DNA of 50,679 bases, taken from positions 1 to 50,679 of the IMG/VR virus record IMGVR_UViG_3300031578_000055; one strand, given 5' to 3'. Positions 1,548-43,065 of the stretch are shown in pieces. The translations under genes and the position numbers were made by a program. The notes beneath the pieces were generated by a model. The model worked only from the letters and a program-made list of their open reading frames with translations, was not told where the DNA came from and ran no database searches. The DNA comes from a virus. Taxonomy: Duplodnaviria; Caudoviricetes. The first letter of the stretch is position 1. Each line of letters opens with the position of its first letter.

Positions 1548-2174
1548 TTACTCTGCTTCCCATGCCTTTGAAAATTCCTCATTACCAAAAGCTTCCGCAA
1601 GTCCTGTTATTTGTTTGAGTCTCAACACTTCATCAGCATCCATTCCCAACTCTTTTGATATCTTTTTATCATTCCAGTTTCTTCTTGATAGTTCAATAAC
1701 AATATCTGACATAGCATCAATTTTGTGTTTCCCTCTTGCCCGATTATGTCTAATTGTTGAAGCTATTCGGTCATTTCTTCCCTCTCTATTGTTCTTTATT
1801 TTTACTATTGGAAGATATCCATATATTCTTTTTTGTATTTCAGCGCATTCTTTCCCCACTCTATTCCTATGGAATCCGTCAACAACCTCTATTTTATTTT
1901 TTTGATTTTCAGATGTAACTATAGGCTGTGTAAATCCATCCTCTTCTATTGACAATCTTAAAAGTTCCATTTCTGGAGGTGCAACGGCATTAGGGTTGTA
2001 ATCATTTGCAGTAACTTCCTTGTTTTTGACCCATAGAACACAATCAACAGGTTCTCCTTTTAAAGGTGACCTTTCATGTAAATATATTTTTAACCAATTA
2101 ATAATTTCAATCTTTTCATCTATTGAAATATCTGTTTCTAGTTTTTCAATCATATCTTGCGCAATTTTTTTCAT
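1548..2174 (-). CDS. ibrB: ParB/Srx-like protein (IbrB/YbdM family)
   Basis: ANDYNPNAVAPPEMELL, VVDGFHR, RIASTIRHNRARGKH, C-terminal HTH; coupled to IbrA-like gene. Confidence 0.9.
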   Translation of the reverse strand: MKKIAQDMIEKLETDISIDEKIEIINWLKIYLHERSPLKGEPVDCVLWVKNKEVTANDYNPNAVAPPEMELLRLSIEEDGFTQPIVTSENQKNKIEVVDGFHRNRVGKECAEIQKRIYGYLPIVKIKNNREGRNDRIASTIRHNRARGKHKIDAMSDIVIELSRRNWNDKKISKELGMDADEVLRLKQITGLAEAFGNEEFSKAWEAE

Positions 2175-3388
2175 ATTTTATACCCTTCTTTTCTTCTTTT
2201 CTTTTTTATTCTAGTCATGTATTGCTCATAAAAGAAACCACTTTTTGTCTGTGTGAAATTAAGCCCTTTAGCCCAGTAGTCATTTCTTAATAACATCTTT
2301 GCTATTCTTCTCCATGATGGAGCTTTTCTTTCTGCTTCTTGTTTTTTGTCTACAGTGTCAGGAATACCATTTGAATATCCTCTTTTTTTATACCATTCAA
2401 TAAAAACATATATTTTATTTTTATAATGTTCCATCATTTTTTCTGGCATGCTCTCCATTAACATCATAGAAAAACTTTCCCATGTGTGTCCTTCGGGCAA
2501 AGTAACTTTTTGCTGTCCTGAAATATTGCCTGAATATTGTACAAAATCAGATCCTGAATTAGCGCCATTAACGCGGGCAACAATTTTCGCCCACGATTCA
2601 GGCTCGATTATGTGATATAACCACAAGCCTTTTCTTTGATCATACCCATAAGGCTGACAGATCCTTTGTTGATGAATGGTTAATCCTGCTTTGCTCATTA
2701 GATCATAAAGTCTGTTATATTTCTTCTGGAATTTCCCGTTATATCTCCAGATATCTTGAGTTTTCCAATCATATATCGGGTAGGCATTATATACTGGCAT
2801 ATCCCACAATTTAGTTGTCCATTTATAGTCTGAAAACGTCTTTTTCTTTTTGCTTGCAATTGTCCTGTATCTATTCAAAGATTCGTCAGTTCTAATCCCT
2901 ACAAAGCAAGCGGTTGGCAACCCTTCTGAATACCATTCCCCGAATAATGGAACAAACTCTTCAAATTCCATATCTCTTTTAAAAAATGGGAAGAAAGATT
3001 CGTCTGTTATAGCAAATTCAGGTGGCGTTCTAACCCATATTTCTTTTTTATCTGGATTCCAACATTGCCATTTAGGCTGATAAACAGAAACTGAATTACT
3101 AAGCGCTATTGGAAGAGAAACCCAGAATGGATCTATGAACTCTGAATATTCTTTATACATTTCTAATAAATGTTCTATTGTTATTTTATATTGGGCTTCC
3201 AGGTCAACGAATAAAACTCCTATTTTCTTTTTTCTTTTTATTGCTTCATCCATTACTAGATGAAGCATTACAGAAGAGTCTTTCCCCCCAGAAAATGATA
3301 AATATATTTTAGGGAAATATTCAAATATGATCTCTATTCTTTTTTTTGCTTCTGTATATACATCAGATTCCAAATATTTCTTACCCAC
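2171..3388 (-). CDS. ibrA: PAPS-reductase family protein with DUF3440 (IbrA/YbdN family)
   Basis: SFSGGKDS PP-loop, GIRTDESLNR, YPIYDW, QRICQPYG; likely GTG start at 3388 after GGGGG RBS (405 aa). Confidence 0.9.
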   Translation of the reverse strand: MGKKYLESDVYTEAKKRIEIIFEYFPKIYLSFSGGKDSSVMLHLVMDEAIKRKKKIGVLFVDLEAQYKITIEHLLEMYKEYSEFIDPFWVSLPIALSNSVSVYQPKWQCWNPDKKEIWVRTPPEFAITDESFFPFFKRDMEFEEFVPLFGEWYSEGLPTACFVGIRTDESLNRYRTIASKKKKTFSDYKWTTKLWDMPVYNAYPIYDWKTQDIWRYNGKFQKKYNRLYDLMSKAGLTIHQQRICQPYGYDQRKGLWLYHIIEPESWAKIVARVNGANSGSDFVQYSGNISGQQKVTLPEGHTWESFSMMLMESMPEKMMEHYKNKIYVFIEWYKKRGYSNGIPDTVDKKQEAERKAPSWRRIAKMLLRNDYWAKGLNFTQTKSGFFYEQYMTRIKKKRRKEGYKI

Positions 3389-3737
3389 AAATAGCCCCCA
3401 CAAACTCATAAAAAGCTTCTCTAGTTTTAGCCCCTGAGAAGTGGCTTTTTGATGTTCTAAAATCAGAATCAATAACAGACTCAAAAAAACATGTCTTGAA
3501 TACCCATTCGTTGTTTACAGCATCATAATATAATTTATCAAGAAACGAATGCGCTTCGTTATTATTTTGGCTCCACAATTCGCAATACAATCTTACGTGC
3601 CCAAAATTAGACCAAACCCAGGATTCTTGTATTGCTTTTAGATCCTTTATTATATCTTGCATATTTACTAAATTTTCAGCCACACAATACGGAATATCTA
3701 AATTTTTGGACGCAAATTTTATAACAGCGTTTTCCAT
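3381..3737 (-). CDS. Hypothetical protein
   Basis: Strong AAAGGAG RBS; overlaps ibrA start. Confidence 0.8.
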   Translation of the reverse strand: MENAVIKFASKNLDIPYCVAENLVNMQDIIKDLKAIQESWVWSNFGHVRLYCELWSQNNNEAHSFLDKLYYDAVNNEWVFKTCFFESVIDSDFRTSKSHFSGAKTREAFYEFVGAICG

Positions 3738-40338: not shown

Positions 40339-40512
40339 ATGAAATATGCAATTATTAGAGTCAATAAACATGAATCTGTAAATGTTGAGTTTGACATAAA
40401 AAATATTGCTGAAAAATTTTGTATTGTCTGCAACAAAGGATTAACTAAAAAAGATGACAATTATTTGATTGTAGAGAGGAGAAATCATGAAAGAGAAAAG
40501 AGAACAGTTTAA
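40339..40512 (+). CDS. Small hypothetical protein (not in ORF track)
   Basis: AAAGGAGG RBS; 57 aa. Confidence 0.7.
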   Translation: MKYAIIRVNKHESVNVEFDIKNIAEKFCIVCNKGLTKKDDNYLIVERRNHEREKRTV

Positions 40513-40645
40513 TTTAAGAATGCCCGAACCGCTTAAAGGCAGGGGGAAAAAAGAAGCTGCATTTTATGGGATAAATATGTCTCAATTTATTGTTCAGGCT
40601 ATAAATGAAAAACTTGAAAAAATAGATATGCGTATAACAGACTAA
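40487..40645 (+). CDS. Ribbon-helix-helix protein (not in ORF track)
   Basis: QFNLRMPEPLK...AAFYGINMSQFIVQAINEKL; GAGGAG RBS. Confidence 0.8.
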   Translation: MKEKREQFNLRMPEPLKGRGKKEAAFYGINMSQFIVQAINEKLEKIDMRITD

Positions 40646-40691
40646 GATGTGCAATGCGGATAATAGTAGTTATGTGGAAAAGGGGGCTAAG

Positions 40692-41042
40692 ATGGAATGG
40701 ATTAGTGTTGAAAAAGAACTTCCGATTGAAGAAGATTATTATTTAGTATCGAGTAATTATGGAATAGTTGTTCGTAGTTTTAATGTTTATCATAATTGCT
40801 GGGACGATGAACAGGCAGATGACTATTGGTGCGATGCAGTAGGTGGGAATGTTACACACTGGATGCCACTACCACCGCCCCCTTCATCACATAACAGCGA
40901 ATATAAGCAATGCGAGTTTTGCCACGATACAAGGTTGTTGTGTAGTGGTGCCGGAGAGTGTGACCATGATGGTAGAGACTGTAGCGAAAGTGATAATTGT
41001 GGTGAATATACACCGGCACTATGTAAGCATTGTACAAATTAG
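40692..41042 (+). CDS. DUF551-like protein with Cys-rich tail (cassette A)
   Basis: MEWISVEKELP...VTHWMPLP; reads through the att site. Confidence 0.85.
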   Translation: MEWISVEKELPIEEDYYLVSSNYGIVVRSFNVYHNCWDDEQADDYWCDAVGGNVTHWMPLPPPPSSHNSEYKQCEFCHDTRLLCSGAGECDHDGRDCSESDNCGEYTPALCKHCTN

Positions 41043-41098
41043 CGCACTGCATATATTCGCAGAACGTTATACACAATTTGTGTCTAAAGGAGAATATA

Positions 41099-41263
41099 AT
41101 GAAAGTTGATTTTAAACAGAAGGCTACATTGGTAATTACACCGGAAAATGAAATAGAAAGTTATGCACTTAGAAAATGGCATGAAGGCTATGTTTCAATA
41201 GAGCCTTCTGAAGAATGTTTATGTGTAGAGTCAATTACAATTGACGACACAAACAATGTATAA
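41099..41263 (+). CDS. Hypothetical protein (cassette B)
   Basis: AAAGGAG RBS; stop lies in GTATAAC. Confidence 0.75.
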   Translation: MKVDFKQKATLVITPENEIESYALRKWHEGYVSIEPSEECLCVESITIDDTNNV

Positions 41264-41331
41264 CAGGGTTTATATGTCATTGATTACAACATCATATAAG
41301 CCGGAAACGTTATAGGCAATTGGAGGGTTAA

Positions 41332-41538
41332 ATGAGAGGAAAAGGTTTACTCGAATGGGAATGGGTTGCACATATTGAATATTCTGATTATGCCGATTCT
41401 TTGTTACATTTTAGTAGTTTAGATGCTACTGATATATTATCTGCAATAGCACATGTTTATCGGCATTGTCGGGAAAGTGGAGTTTTTGAAGTTATTTCTT
41501 TAACGCAACTGCCTATAACAGCAGATACACGGAAATAA
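41332..41538 (+). CDS. Hypothetical protein (cassette C)
   Basis: GGAGG RBS just after GTTATAG. Confidence 0.75.
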   Translation: MRGKGLLEWEWVAHIEYSDYADSLLHFSSLDATDILSAIAHVYRHCRESGVFEVISLTQLPITADTRK

Positions 41539-41591
41539 CAAGTGACTGCATATAAACCCGAAACGTTATGTACAATATTTTGGAGGAGTAA

Positions 41592-41834
41592 ATGGACAAT
41601 AGGCATATGGATATTATATATGATGCATTGTGTAATGACGATGACCCTGTTTTTTCTAGCGAGACTGTTACAGAAATGTATAATTATATCAAAGAATTGG
41701 AAGCTAAAATAAACCTGCTCCAAAATATTATTCATAACAACAGTTTAACAAAATCATGCAGCGGTTGTTGGGGGGAGAATAAGATTTGTTATGGTTGTAT
41801 AGATTTTAGTGGTTACAAAAGCATGACTTCGTAA
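41592..41834 (+). CDS. Hypothetical protein with CxxC..CxxC tail (cassette D)
   Basis: GGAGG RBS; reads through att site. Confidence 0.75.
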   Translation: MDNRHMDIIYDALCNDDDPVFSSETVTEMYNYIKELEAKINLLQNIIHNNSLTKSCSGCWGENKICYGCIDFSGYKSMTS

Positions 41835-41872
41835 AACTGCGAAACGTTATGTACAATATTTTGGAGGATTAA

Positions 41873-42097
41873 ATGAGTAGAAAACCAATAGAATCTTTTC
41901 ATATTGCAGGGATAAAATATGCCTGTTGTCAAGAATCAGATGTTAGAGAGCTTGAAGCTGAACTTGACCAGCTCCAAAACACTATACATAACATCGATTA
42001 TTCGAAATGTCCAGATTGTGAAGGGTACGGGCAAAGCATAAAAGGCTGGACGATAATGCCCTGTAAAAAGTGTAAGGGTACGGGACAAATCGTATAA
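41873..42097 (+). CDS. Hypothetical protein with CxxCxGxG tail (cassette E)
   Basis: GGAGG RBS; CPDCEGYG...CKKCKGTG; shares ELEA...LQN.IHN with cassette D. Confidence 0.75.
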   Translation: MSRKPIESFHIAGIKYACCQESDVRELEAELDQLQNTIHNIDYSKCPDCEGYGQSIKGWTIMPCKKCKGTGQIV

Positions 42098-42235
42098 TCG
42101 CGAAACGTTAGGCGAAATTAGGAGTCAGACATTGTTTAGTAGCATGGACGGCTGGTAAAATCTATTGTAGTGGATGCTGTCAATATATCAAAACTTCGCA
42201 TAATCGCAGAACGTTATGAATAATAAGAGGATCAA

Positions 42236-42430
42236 ATGGTAGACAACGTTAAAGATATAATTAAAGCGTATTGTTCAGTGCATTATCCCGGAGCAGATGG
42301 ATTATGTAATGATGGTTGTGGATGTTCTTTTGACGATTTGCAACCGTGCAGTAGTTCATGTATGCATTGTGTTCCAGCAAAATGGAATGGAGAAGAAGAG
42401 ATTTTTATAGAAATAGACAAATATCAATAA
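42236..42430 (+). CDS. Cys-rich small protein (last cassette-like unit)
   Basis: GAGG RBS after GTTATGA; GADGLCNDGCGC..DDLQPC. Confidence 0.75.
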   Translation: MVDNVKDIIKAYCSVHYPGADGLCNDGCGCSFDDLQPCSSSCMHCVPAKWNGEEEIFIEIDKYQ

Positions 42431-42502
42431 ATGAGTATATTATTAACATAAGGATGAACAATGGATACCATAAACCCGATTAAAAACCCAATTTTGATAA
42501 AG

Positions 42503-42537: not shown

Positions 42538-43065
42538 ATGAATAAAATATGGAAAGAAATTAGGGGATATGATGGGTTTTATAAGATTTCTAATTGTGGA
42601 GATGTATATAATTCGAAATGGGATCGTCCAGTAAAGCAACATATAAACAAATCAAACGGATATTATGAAGTCTGCTTATACAAGAAGCAAAAACGAAAAC
42701 ACCATACAATACATAGATTAGTTGCTCTTCATTTTGTTGGTATTTTATCTGGCCGTGAATTTGTAAATCATAAAGATTCTGATAAACATAACAATGATTC
42801 AACAAACCTTGAATGGGTTACTAAGTCTGAGAATGGTATTCACGCAGGAAAAGCAGGATTACTTTCTGTTAATCTAAGAAAAAATGTAAATCAATTAACC
42901 AAAGAAGGGAATTTTATCAAAACACATATTAGCCTTTCTTCTGCAGCTAGAGAATTAAACCTGCAAAAAACAAATATATCATCTTGTTGTTATGGTAAAT
43001 CAAAAACATGTGGAGGATTCTTATGGGAATTCACTCAAAAGGATATAAACCGTGATCAATATTAA
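42538..43065 (+). CDS. NUMOD4-HNH-NUMOD1 homing endonuclease
   Basis: WKEIRGYDGFYKISNCG, IHRLVA, VNHKD...NLEWVT..EN, C-terminal SLSSAAREL...GGFLW. Confidence 0.92.
   Translation: MNKIWKEIRGYDGFYKISNCGDVYNSKWDRPVKQHINKSNGYYEVCLYKKQKRKHHTIHRLVALHFVGILSGREFVNHKDSDKHNNDSTNLEWVTKSENGIHAGKAGLLSVNLRKNVNQLTKEGNFIKTHISLSSAARELNLQKTNISSCCYGKSKTCGGFLWEFTQKDINRDQY

Follow-up and report, generated by a model that had tools for sequence, protein, structure and literature searches.

Why does each cassette of a small gene array on a phage genome begin with a sequence that is complementary to the end of the same cassette? The question is raised by the window, that is, the whole stretch of DNA analyzed here, which is the complete virus record IMGVR_UViG_3300031578_000055 of IMG/VR (50,679 nt, estimated to be 95% complete, 33% G+C). 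Each cassette of its array is bounded by a terminal inverted repeat (TIR) of its own. We find that the feature is real and that it is integron-like in function and layout; it fails the integrase-domain test for an integron, has its own class of sites and is carried on a phage without a recombinase. The repeats are probably the two halves of the outer arm (the R-box or XerD-like arm) of a folded attC-like site, in an integron-like system which is built from dif-like half-sites and served by a host recombinase of the Xer/IntI clade. The evidence for all conclusions is computational throughout.

Cassette ends and layout of the array

Five start/end pairs, in the units A to E, had been located in a preliminary description of this DNA. 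All five are present, with 16/19 complementary positions in A, 16/19 in B, 13/14 in C, 19/21 in D and 18/21 in E, and a separate repeat search recovers every one of them. The arm sequences differ among A, B, C and D/E, as had been observed before, D and E having the start arm in common. The units share one order: a start arm X, the body, an end arm X' ending in ..TAAC, a short stem–loop, RAAC and then the G↓TTA of the next unit (the arrow marks the junction). The first base of every start arm is the G of a conserved direct repeat of 32 nt, which is present in six copies (at 41046, 41289, 41545, 41826, 42087 and 42193); a degenerate pattern of this repeat gave six forward matches, none on the reverse strand, none in the backwards control and no other genome matches. 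Just inside the start/end pairs there are further inverted repeats, for example 40897-40914/41043-41060 and 41995-42012/42083-42100.

The repeats can be read as half-sites with an 11-nt XerC-like arm (C arm) and an 11-nt XerD-like arm (D arm). The inverted half-site has the spacing 11-6-11, and the direct half-site has the spacing 11-10-11 with four extra RAAC bases. The open reading frames (ORFs) and sites of the array are as follows.

40653..40680, + strand: head site of the array, dif-like, 11-6-11 (AATGCGGATAA / TAGTAG / TTATGTGGAAA)
G at 40669, + strand: crossover-side base of the head site (G↓TT), read from the sequence
40669..41065, + strand: cassette A, X 40669-40687, X' 40877-40895
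40884-40911, + strand: inverted half-site of A, 11-6-11
40692-41042, + strand: ORF of A, DUF551 (E 3.3e-12)
41046..41077, + strand: A/B direct half-site, 11-10-11 (ACTGCATATAT / TCGCAGAACG / TTATACACAAT)
41066..41308, + strand: cassette B, X 41066-41084, X' 41246-41264
41099-41263, + strand: ORF of B, its stop being the TAA within ...TATAAC
41253-41280 and 41289-41320, + strand: inverted and direct half-sites of B, from fold and repeat search
41309..41564, + strand: cassette C, X 41309-41322, X' 41506-41519, the weakest pair of the array
41332-41538, + strand: ORF of C
41508-41535 and 41545-41576, + strand: inverted and direct half-sites of C
41565..41845, + strand: cassette D, X 41565-41588, X' 41715-41738
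41592-41834, + strand: ORF of D, reading through the site (..HN..) into a Cys-rich tail
41727-41754 and 41826-41857, + strand: inverted and direct half-sites of D
41846..42106, + strand: cassette E, X 41846-41866, X' 41972-41992
41873-42097, + strand: ORF of E with a CXXCXGXG-like tail (PF00684, E 2.4e-5, below the cut-off)
41981-42008 and 42087-42118, + strand: inverted and direct half-sites of E, C arms at 41995-42012 / 42083-42100
42107..42212, + strand: unit F, without ORF and without inverted half-site; 5' end GTTAGGCGAAAT, 3' end the direct half-site 42193-42224
42213..42460, + strand: unit G, the last one, with its start arm at 42213 and an ORF at 42236-42430
~42434-42457, + strand: end arm of G, a degenerate remnant with no C module after it, identified by reading only and without a scan score

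The shorter spacing is seen in the end site of E on the reverse strand (ATTTCGAATAA / TCGATG / TTATGTATAGT) and the longer one in the direct site 42193-42224 (ACTTCGCATAA / TCGCAGAACG / TTATGAATAAT). In 20 of the 22 inter-cassette sites with both C arms alignable, the four extra bases (GAAC or AAAC) stand directly 5' of G↓TT on the 3' arm. According to Tables 4 and 5 of PMC10132070, pdif and dif sites consist of a XerC arm, 6 nt and a XerD arm, with ACTTCGCATAA, ACTTCGTATAA and ATTTCGTATAA as XerC arms and TTATGTTAAAT as XerD arm. Two C arms of the present system (ACTTCGCATAA and ACTTCGTATAA) are identical to XerC arms tabulated there, the first of them being the C arm of unit F. The 5' end of unit F, GTTAGGCGAAAT, is also the arm that terminates the array in the metagenome locus L035. 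The bare 9-mer GAACGTTAT, with one mismatch allowed, is not enriched in the window (15 occurrences, 11.3 expected).

The ORF of A continues through its site, and the stretch between the C arms (40897-40914 / 41043-41060) adds a Cys-rich tail to the protein. The TAAC box at the end arm is read in two ways. It supplies the stop codon TAA in B (41259-41264) and in the first cassette of the spirochaete array L062 (3547-3553), and it is read as CAT AAC (His-Asn) in A (40889-40894), D (41733-41738) and E (41987-41992), the ORFs of which run on into Cys-rich, zinc-ribbon-like tails encoded inside the stem–loop module (C module). ORFs read through likewise, into other tails, in units 1-4 of L035 and in unit 1 of L033. 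We also noted that the end arm of D (41726-41738) is complementary in 13/13 positions to the start of G (42213-42225) and fits D's own start further out; this arm looks like a chimera from an exchange within the arm.

Own-end pairing in related arrays

Self-pairing cassette ends are no peculiarity of this phage. In viral contigs, a first scan with an exact motif returned seven loci, only one of them (L010) being relevant, and a motif scan yielded a single cassette built alike in a further virus record (L021). Arrays were present in five of 15 loci from metagenome contigs (L022, L024, L025, L033 and L035; L034 repeats L021 and most of the others look like chance), and the 13 matches in genome contigs included arrays on spirochaete chromosomes (L040, L044, L045 and L048) and in an ANME-1 archaeon (L039). 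With a stricter pattern, three spirochaete genomes gave 11, 13 and 2 sites versus 0, 0 and 1 in the backwards control. The sites of the window and of these relatives all have AAC and GTT, form both stems and join at G↓TT; GTTRRRY describes some of the R' boxes (GTTAGGC, GTTAGAT), and many others are GTTATGT or GTTATAC. The head site of L062 is again 11-6-11 (AATTCGCATAA / GATACG / TTAGATGCAAC), as is that of L063, and the head site of L021 has a 7-nt spacer.

Two of these loci deserve a separate remark. L010 (1-1020, the start of a virus record rated 100% complete) has two family sites with G+C-rich stems, which bound a cassette with its ORF on the opposite strand; once a 1-nt indel is allowed for, the two arms of this cassette pair, and they show the same CAAT/CAGT signature. 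L039 (5272-7504, from a metagenome-assembled genome of the ANME-1 archaeon) has three sites with an RAAC↓GTTAT junction, and at the single end site examined self-pairing failed (13/22).

A and B alone (16/22) lie within the chance expectation for a genome of 33% G+C. First-order Markov resamples of the window contained on average 2.78 GTTA..TAAC pairs with at least 16/22 matches (maximum 10) versus 7 observed, 5 of which are in the array. Over positions 13-22, own-end pairing has a mean of 7.71/10 versus 2.85 (sd 1.8) for non-own ends, and none of 10000 permutations attained the sum observed. Despite A and B individually, the set of five repeats as a whole is far from chance.

The cassettes can be delimited blindly. 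We took the last 22 nt of 27 end sites and sought the best complement in the 3.5 kb upstream. For 21 of the 27 this was located exactly at the first G of the cassette itself, with 16-21 of 22 positions matching; the second-best matches scored 11-18, usually 12-15, and the reversed-query controls 12-15. The successes include cassettes of 994, 1450, 1977 and 2222 nt, one cassette of this kilobase scale holding DnaJ/CbpA-like and HspR-like genes. Six sites missed the criterion: C of the window, L021 (the correct place was found, a 1-nt indel lowering the score), L025 at 2465 (the correct place scores 14/22), L022, L065 at 11828 and L039. A motif-free scan for GTTA...TAAC with at least 17/22 matches between nearest partners tiled the four spirochaete arrays L062-L065 with 10, 9, 5 and 6 cassettes.

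The position profile, which we compiled from 21 distinct cassettes of the window and the related loci, has a sharp outer limit and one fixed exception. Positions 1-8 pair in 18-21 of the 21 cassettes and positions 9 and 10 in 13 each; position 11 is paired in a single cassette, the start arm always having A and the reverse complement of the end arm having G in 19. Positions 12-19 pair again in 17-21 cassettes, though their sequence varies by cassette; pairing declines at positions 20-22 and is at background level from 23 on. The clustering of mismatches around positions 9-11 that had been noticed in the phage array is thus general to this set. Compensatory changes are seen as well: TTTTGGAG/CTCCAAAA in D and E of the window and in unit 2 of L035 versus TTTTGAG/CTCAAAA in unit 4 of L035, a T5/A5 version of the arm in L024, and the R boxes GTTAGATG/CATCTAAC in related arms. 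By profile and by compensatory changes the outer arm covaries across related cassettes, as the early description had proposed. Its suggestion of a second recombinase-binding arm has to be revised: the outer stretch is a continuation of the same arm, a XerD-like half-site of 11 nt in which a wobble or mismatch is conserved toward the outer end and to which about 8 further pairs are added.

The mismatches are not symmetrical with respect to the strands. The A of the start arm stands opposite a C of the end arm, which is an A·C mismatch on the top strand and a G·T wobble on the bottom strand; because the difference at position 11 is a bottom-strand G·T wobble, the bottom strand folds better. Positions 1-20 of 47 cassettes contain 129 non-matches: 72 of the bottom-strand G·T type, 7 of the top-strand G·T type and 50 transversions. 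Position 11 is of the bottom-strand type in 41/45, and the bias persists when positions 9 and 11 are left out (22 versus 6). With DNA energy parameters the bottom duplex was more stable for 63 of 96 pairs, the top duplex for 26, and 7 were equal (Wilcoxon P 1.6e-5). The circular single strands of A-E are predicted to fold as dumbbells, as had been supposed, the start/end stem being part of the minimum-energy structure on both strands with 10-20 of 20 positions; the bottom strand forms more of the stem than the top strand in D (19 versus 17 of 20), E (20 versus 15) and A (17 versus 16), B is equal, and C favors the top strand (12 versus 10).

A comparison within L035 locates the borders of exchange. 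Between the upstream C arm and ...CATCTAAC↓A, its units 1 and 3 share about 93% identity, the stem–loop C modules that follow are unrelated, and identity resumes from AC↓GTTATG. The exchanged unit is therefore bounded by the borders of the XerD-like arm, as at G↓TT in integrons. Contigs from soil metagenomes give hints only: in some, the A/B direct site is common up to GTTA (41069), after which another cassette starts, and three contig joints bypass the loop of A's C module with sides of 26-27 letters at 85% likeness, a kind of match that often stems from other organisms or from repeats.

Recombinases and competing explanations

Two of the spirochaete arrays that were found by their sites start 100-600 nt from a divergent tyrosine recombinase gene, encoding 266 or 270 aa; the two enzymes share 37% identity. 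Both fit best to the family NF040815 (XerA-like, 'tyrosine recombinase/integron integrase'; 203 and 196 bits, cut-off 220), and they match the integron-integrase model with 183 and 182 bits (cut-off 265) in two stretches that omit the middle of the model. Over nine array-linked or homologous recombinases the scores against TIGR02249 (cut-off 265) are 182-221 bits, about positions 180-235 of the model being uncovered. All seven homologues tested fall below the IntI cut-off and three lie above that of NF040815. Pairwise alignment with a true IntI from the same genome set, an enzyme with 45% identity to IntI3, leaves a gap of about 47 aa, which corresponds to the IntI-specific stretch. The array-linked recombinases measure 265-413 aa. 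According to Messier and Roy (2001), as cited in PMC9668308, an additional domain around patch III is what marks integron integrases; the linked recombinases are without this domain.

The linkage was also approached from the enzyme. Recombinase homologues at E<=1e-40 occur in 79 of 301 sampled Spirochaetota genomes, and we took eight of their loci regardless of sites. Four have a divergent self-pairing array with the A/G signature 360-570 nt from the gene (L096, L098 with 9 cassettes, L100 and L101). L102 has such a cassette 3.7 kb from the recombinase, L099 a co-oriented one about 90 nt away and L103 one that is not adjacent; in L097 the self-pairing scan found none.

The phage itself carries no such gene: a six-frame search of the window for the tyrosine-recombinase domain PF00589 was negative (14 of 14 control genomes matched), and a tyrosine recombinase is likewise absent from two further virus records that contain these sites. 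The window holds tailed-phage genes (portal, large terminase (TerL), tape-measure, Mu-type baseplate, amidase) together with two DNA methylases, a ParB-methylase, an HNH endonuclease, a DnaD-like replication protein and an Arc-like repressor; the array sits between the Arc-like gene (40487-40645) and the HNH gene (42538-43065), the local genes all being on the + strand. On the minus strand a PAPS-reductase/DUF3440 protein (2171-3484) adjoins a ParB-N-like protein (1548-2174), and together with the two methylases and the ParB-methylase this suggests a heavy investment of the phage in DNA modification. The searches for a host were negative: TerL is at most ~34% identical to known phages, and the portal has no match in four array-bearing genomes. 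A phage collection gave no DNA match to the window, a search for TerL relatives yielded one uninformative 4-kb contig, and six relatives reached via the ParB-methylase have no AACGTTA site. The cassette proteins have no relatives in the other loci apart from a weak match of E around the site, Rfam gave a single sub-threshold match and no tRNA was found. In two soil runs, contigs join 42652 (in the HNH gene) back to 40436 (in a 57-aa ORF) with 32 other letters between; this joint may come from a relative with a different gene order or from a repeat.

We propose the following mechanism. A unit starts with G↓TTAKRnnnAAT plus about 8 nt (X), followed by the cassette body, and ends with about 8 nt plus AYWnnnYMTAA↓C (X'), the 6-nt spacer, C arm, loop, C arm and the 10-nt spacer ending in RAAC-G. 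In a circular single-stranded cassette X and X' would zip and, together with the C-arm stem, rebuild one dif-like core consisting of a C-arm duplex, a central region with a 4-nt bulge and a D-arm duplex that ends in an 8-bp clamp. The host would contribute a tyrosine recombinase of the Xer/IntI clade; this enzyme would cut next to the D arm, at G↓TT on the top strand, one strand would be exchanged with the 11-6-11 head site, and replication would complete the process as in integrons and CTXphi. The phage, being without a recombinase, would then bear a captured, co-transcribed array at a dif-like site downstream of the Arc-like gene. Of all this, the sequences show the anatomy, the covariation, the strand bias, the exchange break-points at the borders of the D arm and the linkage to a short recombinase in bacterial genomes; folding of the single strand in vivo, the identity of the enzyme, the direction of recombination and its activity in the phage are what we infer.

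Several points weigh against this proposal. C of the window pairs weakly, and its pair was missed by the blind search, the best match being elsewhere at 15/22. The 21 cassettes of the position profile were preselected at 16/22 or better, so that the match rates are somewhat inflated; this preselection does not account for the sharp outer limit or for the constant exception at position 11. The energy advantage of the bottom strand is small (mean 0.56 kcal/mol), and the set of 96 pairs includes chance pairs. A true IntI is encoded in three array-bearing genomes (G001, G002 and G004) and could act in trans, and the chromosomal arrays L064 and L065 were not seen beside a recombinase. With no tyrosine recombinase in the phage or in the two other virus records, the array of the phage would be active only by presumption, and recombination as a whole is likewise deduced by computation.

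The array could instead be an ordinary integron cassette cluster, a cluster of attC sites lacking integrases (CALIN), whose plain attC sites are served in trans by the canonical integrase of a host, the long pairing marking the upper end of attC variation. The array has AAC/GTT triplets and hairpin arms, runs in one direction and has its junctions at G↓TT; 17 CALINs have been published from phages and IntI1 recombined 5/6 tested phage attC sites (Qi et al. 2023, PMC9892861), and the true IntI of the three genomes just mentioned would provide the enzyme. With six sites and no recombinase in a genome that is 95% complete, the array would count as a CALIN (at least two attC, no integron integrase nearby) if the standard attC model accepted its sites. 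Canonical cassettes also pair their own ends more than had been supposed. In one class 3 and two class 1 plasmid arrays (L104, L105 and L106), which served as control, five distinct cassettes of eight have 12-13 contiguous complementary bases from the G on, so that the earlier baseline of the 7-bp R box only was too low; this pairing comprises the G plus the 11-nt arm, with background matches beyond. What speaks against canonical sites is where the cassettes are found and how they are built. Neither AACGTTA-type sites nor self-pairing cassettes occur within 16-18 kb on either side of the true intI genes of G001 (3.134 Mb) and G002 (0.352 Mb) (surroundings L050, L051 and L058-L061), the motif-free scan gave zero cassettes in 68.5 kb flanking true intI genes, and the arrays adjoin recombinases without the IntI-specific domain. 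Four of five further array-bearing genomes, whose completeness is not stated, have no true IntI at E<=1e-40. The arms are conserved in sequence and dif-like, with 6- and 10-nt spacers, unlike canonical attC. We consider an ordinary CALIN unlikely, and the preliminary claims that these are cassette ends of an attC-like recombination system and that their sites form a class distinct from canonical attC are both supported.

A second explanation would dispense with folding. The housekeeping XerC/XerD would shuffle C and D modules at double-stranded 28-bp dif sites, and the repeats would be no more than inverted XerD half-sites. C and D modules do alternate between inversely oriented sites, the C module of L035 has been swapped as a unit, and the C arms equal pdif arms in the tables cited above. 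The direct half-sites have a 10-nt spacer in 20 of 22 cases, though, where the tabulated pdif and dif sites have 6, and about 8 nt of cassette-specific sequence pair beyond the 11-nt arm. Binding of protein to a duplex gives no reason for the G·T bias toward the bottom strand, and the arrays are linked to a single dedicated recombinase gene at their head. This explanation thus appears quite improbable.

The repeats might also act in the mRNA, the 5' end of a cistron pairing downstream, hiding the Shine-Dalgarno (SD) sequence and limiting translation, with the repeats in the DNA as a by-product. For A, B, D and E the RNA fold of minimum energy contains the stem (15-17 of 20 positions), and the SD is predicted to be paired to its X' partner with P 0.76 in A, 0.89 in D and 0.85 in E. 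The repeat had been said to cover the ribosome binding site (RBS) in most units; it does in A, D and E and partly in C (the TIR ends at 41322, within TTGGAGGG), and in B it ends at 41084, before the AAGGAG at 41087-41092. Accordingly the SD of B lies outside the repeat (P 0.00) and that of C barely inside (P 0.19). The hiding of the SD is unlikely to be a selected trait, because the same repeats bound multi-gene cassettes of 1.0-2.2 kb in bacterial chromosomes, and because the non-Watson-Crick bias favors G·T on the non-coding, antisense strand (72 to 7); the repeat of every cassette moreover begins exactly at the recombination junction. Regulation of translation as the origin of the repeats is very improbable. 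The coverage of the RBS looks incidental, and damping of translation may be a side effect in tiny phage cassettes whose RBS is no more than 20 nt from the junction.

Miniature inverted-repeat transposable elements (MITEs) or mere chance repeats in AT-rich DNA, suggested by the TIRs on each unit and by A and B being singly within chance, are scarcely credible, as the outer repeats differ from unit to unit and leave no shared transposase end, no target duplication is visible at the borders (RAAC upstream, AGCG-like bases downstream), and chance is excluded for the set by the permutation and blind-search statistics.

Some further candidates were tried and set aside. A sigma-70 scan for the C arm as a -10 promoter box gave 27 sites (21.7 expected), none recurring at the repeats, and a terminator scan 3 (2.1 expected). 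A CRISPR repeat, considered for the GAAAC end, was dropped on anatomy, and the T4-type 'PeSL' mobile regulatory cassettes were set aside in view of the tyrosine-recombinase half-site anatomy found here.

Going beyond the attC-like reading of the repeats, we tentatively put forward that the arrays represent another and simpler type of integron, in which circular single-stranded cassettes would be captured at a dif-like double site by a recombinase that is Xer/XerA-like and has no IntI domain. The long self-pairing outer arm and the G·T wobble would select the bottom strand, and tailed phages would carry arrays without a recombinase from host to host. Because the inverted half-site is readable in frame (..CAT AAC..), the C modules would therefore act as swappable zinc-ribbon tails. 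If so, domains as well as genes would be shuffled, and the system would be a living intermediate between Xer/dif chromosome resolution and integrons.

How integrons arose from Xer/dif recombination, and what makes a folded attC recognizable, are open questions. Relevant here are the present sites, which are still recognizable as dif half-sites, the linked recombinase, which is without a domain thought essential for integron integrases, and the strand choice, which may be encoded as a G·T wobble plus a 4-nt bulge. Tailed phages from soil metagenomes are added as vehicles for such cassettes, it is suggested that small phage proteins may swap domains in frame by a site-specific route, and own-end pairing, over about 12 nt in canonical cassettes and about 20 nt in the phage-type class, provides a simple delimiter of cassettes that needs no model.

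Comparison with known systems

A full-text search of the literature (supplementary tables unopened) found no dif-like double-site cassette array beside a recombinase without the IntI domain. The arrays resemble integrons in being one-directional and made of small promoterless cassettes, in their hairpin sites with AAC...GTT and G↓TT junctions, in the pairing of the first cassette bases with the own end and in the preference for one strand. Among the bacterial relatives, the head site next to a divergent tyrosine recombinase is a further likeness, and with phage CALINs the array has in common that it is a recombinase-less cluster on a phage. The array-linked recombinases differ from integron integrases by scores below the IntI cut-off and by the missing domain. 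The sites differ as well. Canonical attC is an imperfect hairpin with R'' (RYYYAAC), R' (GTTRRRY), L'' and L' boxes and a crossover at G↓TT, and is characterized by extrahelical bases and an unpaired central spacer; here we find sequence-conserved dif-like half-sites with 6- and 10-nt spacers, the 4-nt RAAC bulge beside the crossover point and the asymmetry of G·T versus A·C in the outer arm. The phage-type class stands apart from canonical cassettes in that its ends pair over 19-20 nt, a wobble or mismatch is fixed toward the outer end of the 11-nt arm, and a clamp of 8 bp is added.

CTXphi, one of the integrative mobile elements that exploit Xer (IMEXs), offers a second parallel. According to PMC4246890, which summarises Val 2005 and Das 2010, attP1 of this phage has a 12-bp centre and attP2 a 5-7-bp centre; neither works as a duplex, and a Xer substrate arises when they fold on the single strand. 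Compared with the forked hairpin of CTXphi attP(+) described there, we again find inverted dif-like sites with unequal centres (in CTXphi 12 and 5-7 bp, in our arrays 10 and 6), unsuited in both cases to duplex recombination, a one-strand fold, predicted in our case, as the Xer substrate and no phage-encoded integrase. CTXphi differs in being a single-stranded filamentous phage which integrates whole at the host dif site with exchange on the XerC side. The cassettes studied here are of sub-kilobase to 2-kb size and arrayed in chromosomes and in a tailed double-stranded DNA phage, as shown by its TerL, portal and baseplate genes, and their junctions lie on the XerD-like side.

The third comparison is with the dif modules, described by the Hall group in PMC13141974 as an Acinetobacter plasmid system. 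With these modules, as presented there and in PMC10132070, our arrays have in common the alternation of C and D modules, XerC/XerD-type sites in inverse orientation, identical C arms and unit-wise exchange. The published pdif sites are all 11-6-11 duplex sites, 28 bp in length, on Rep_3 plasmids served by XerCD. In the present system the alternation is retained, and it differs in that every second site, the direct one, is 11-10-11, that cassette-specific extensions of the arms covary and that a dedicated recombinase heads the bacterial arrays.

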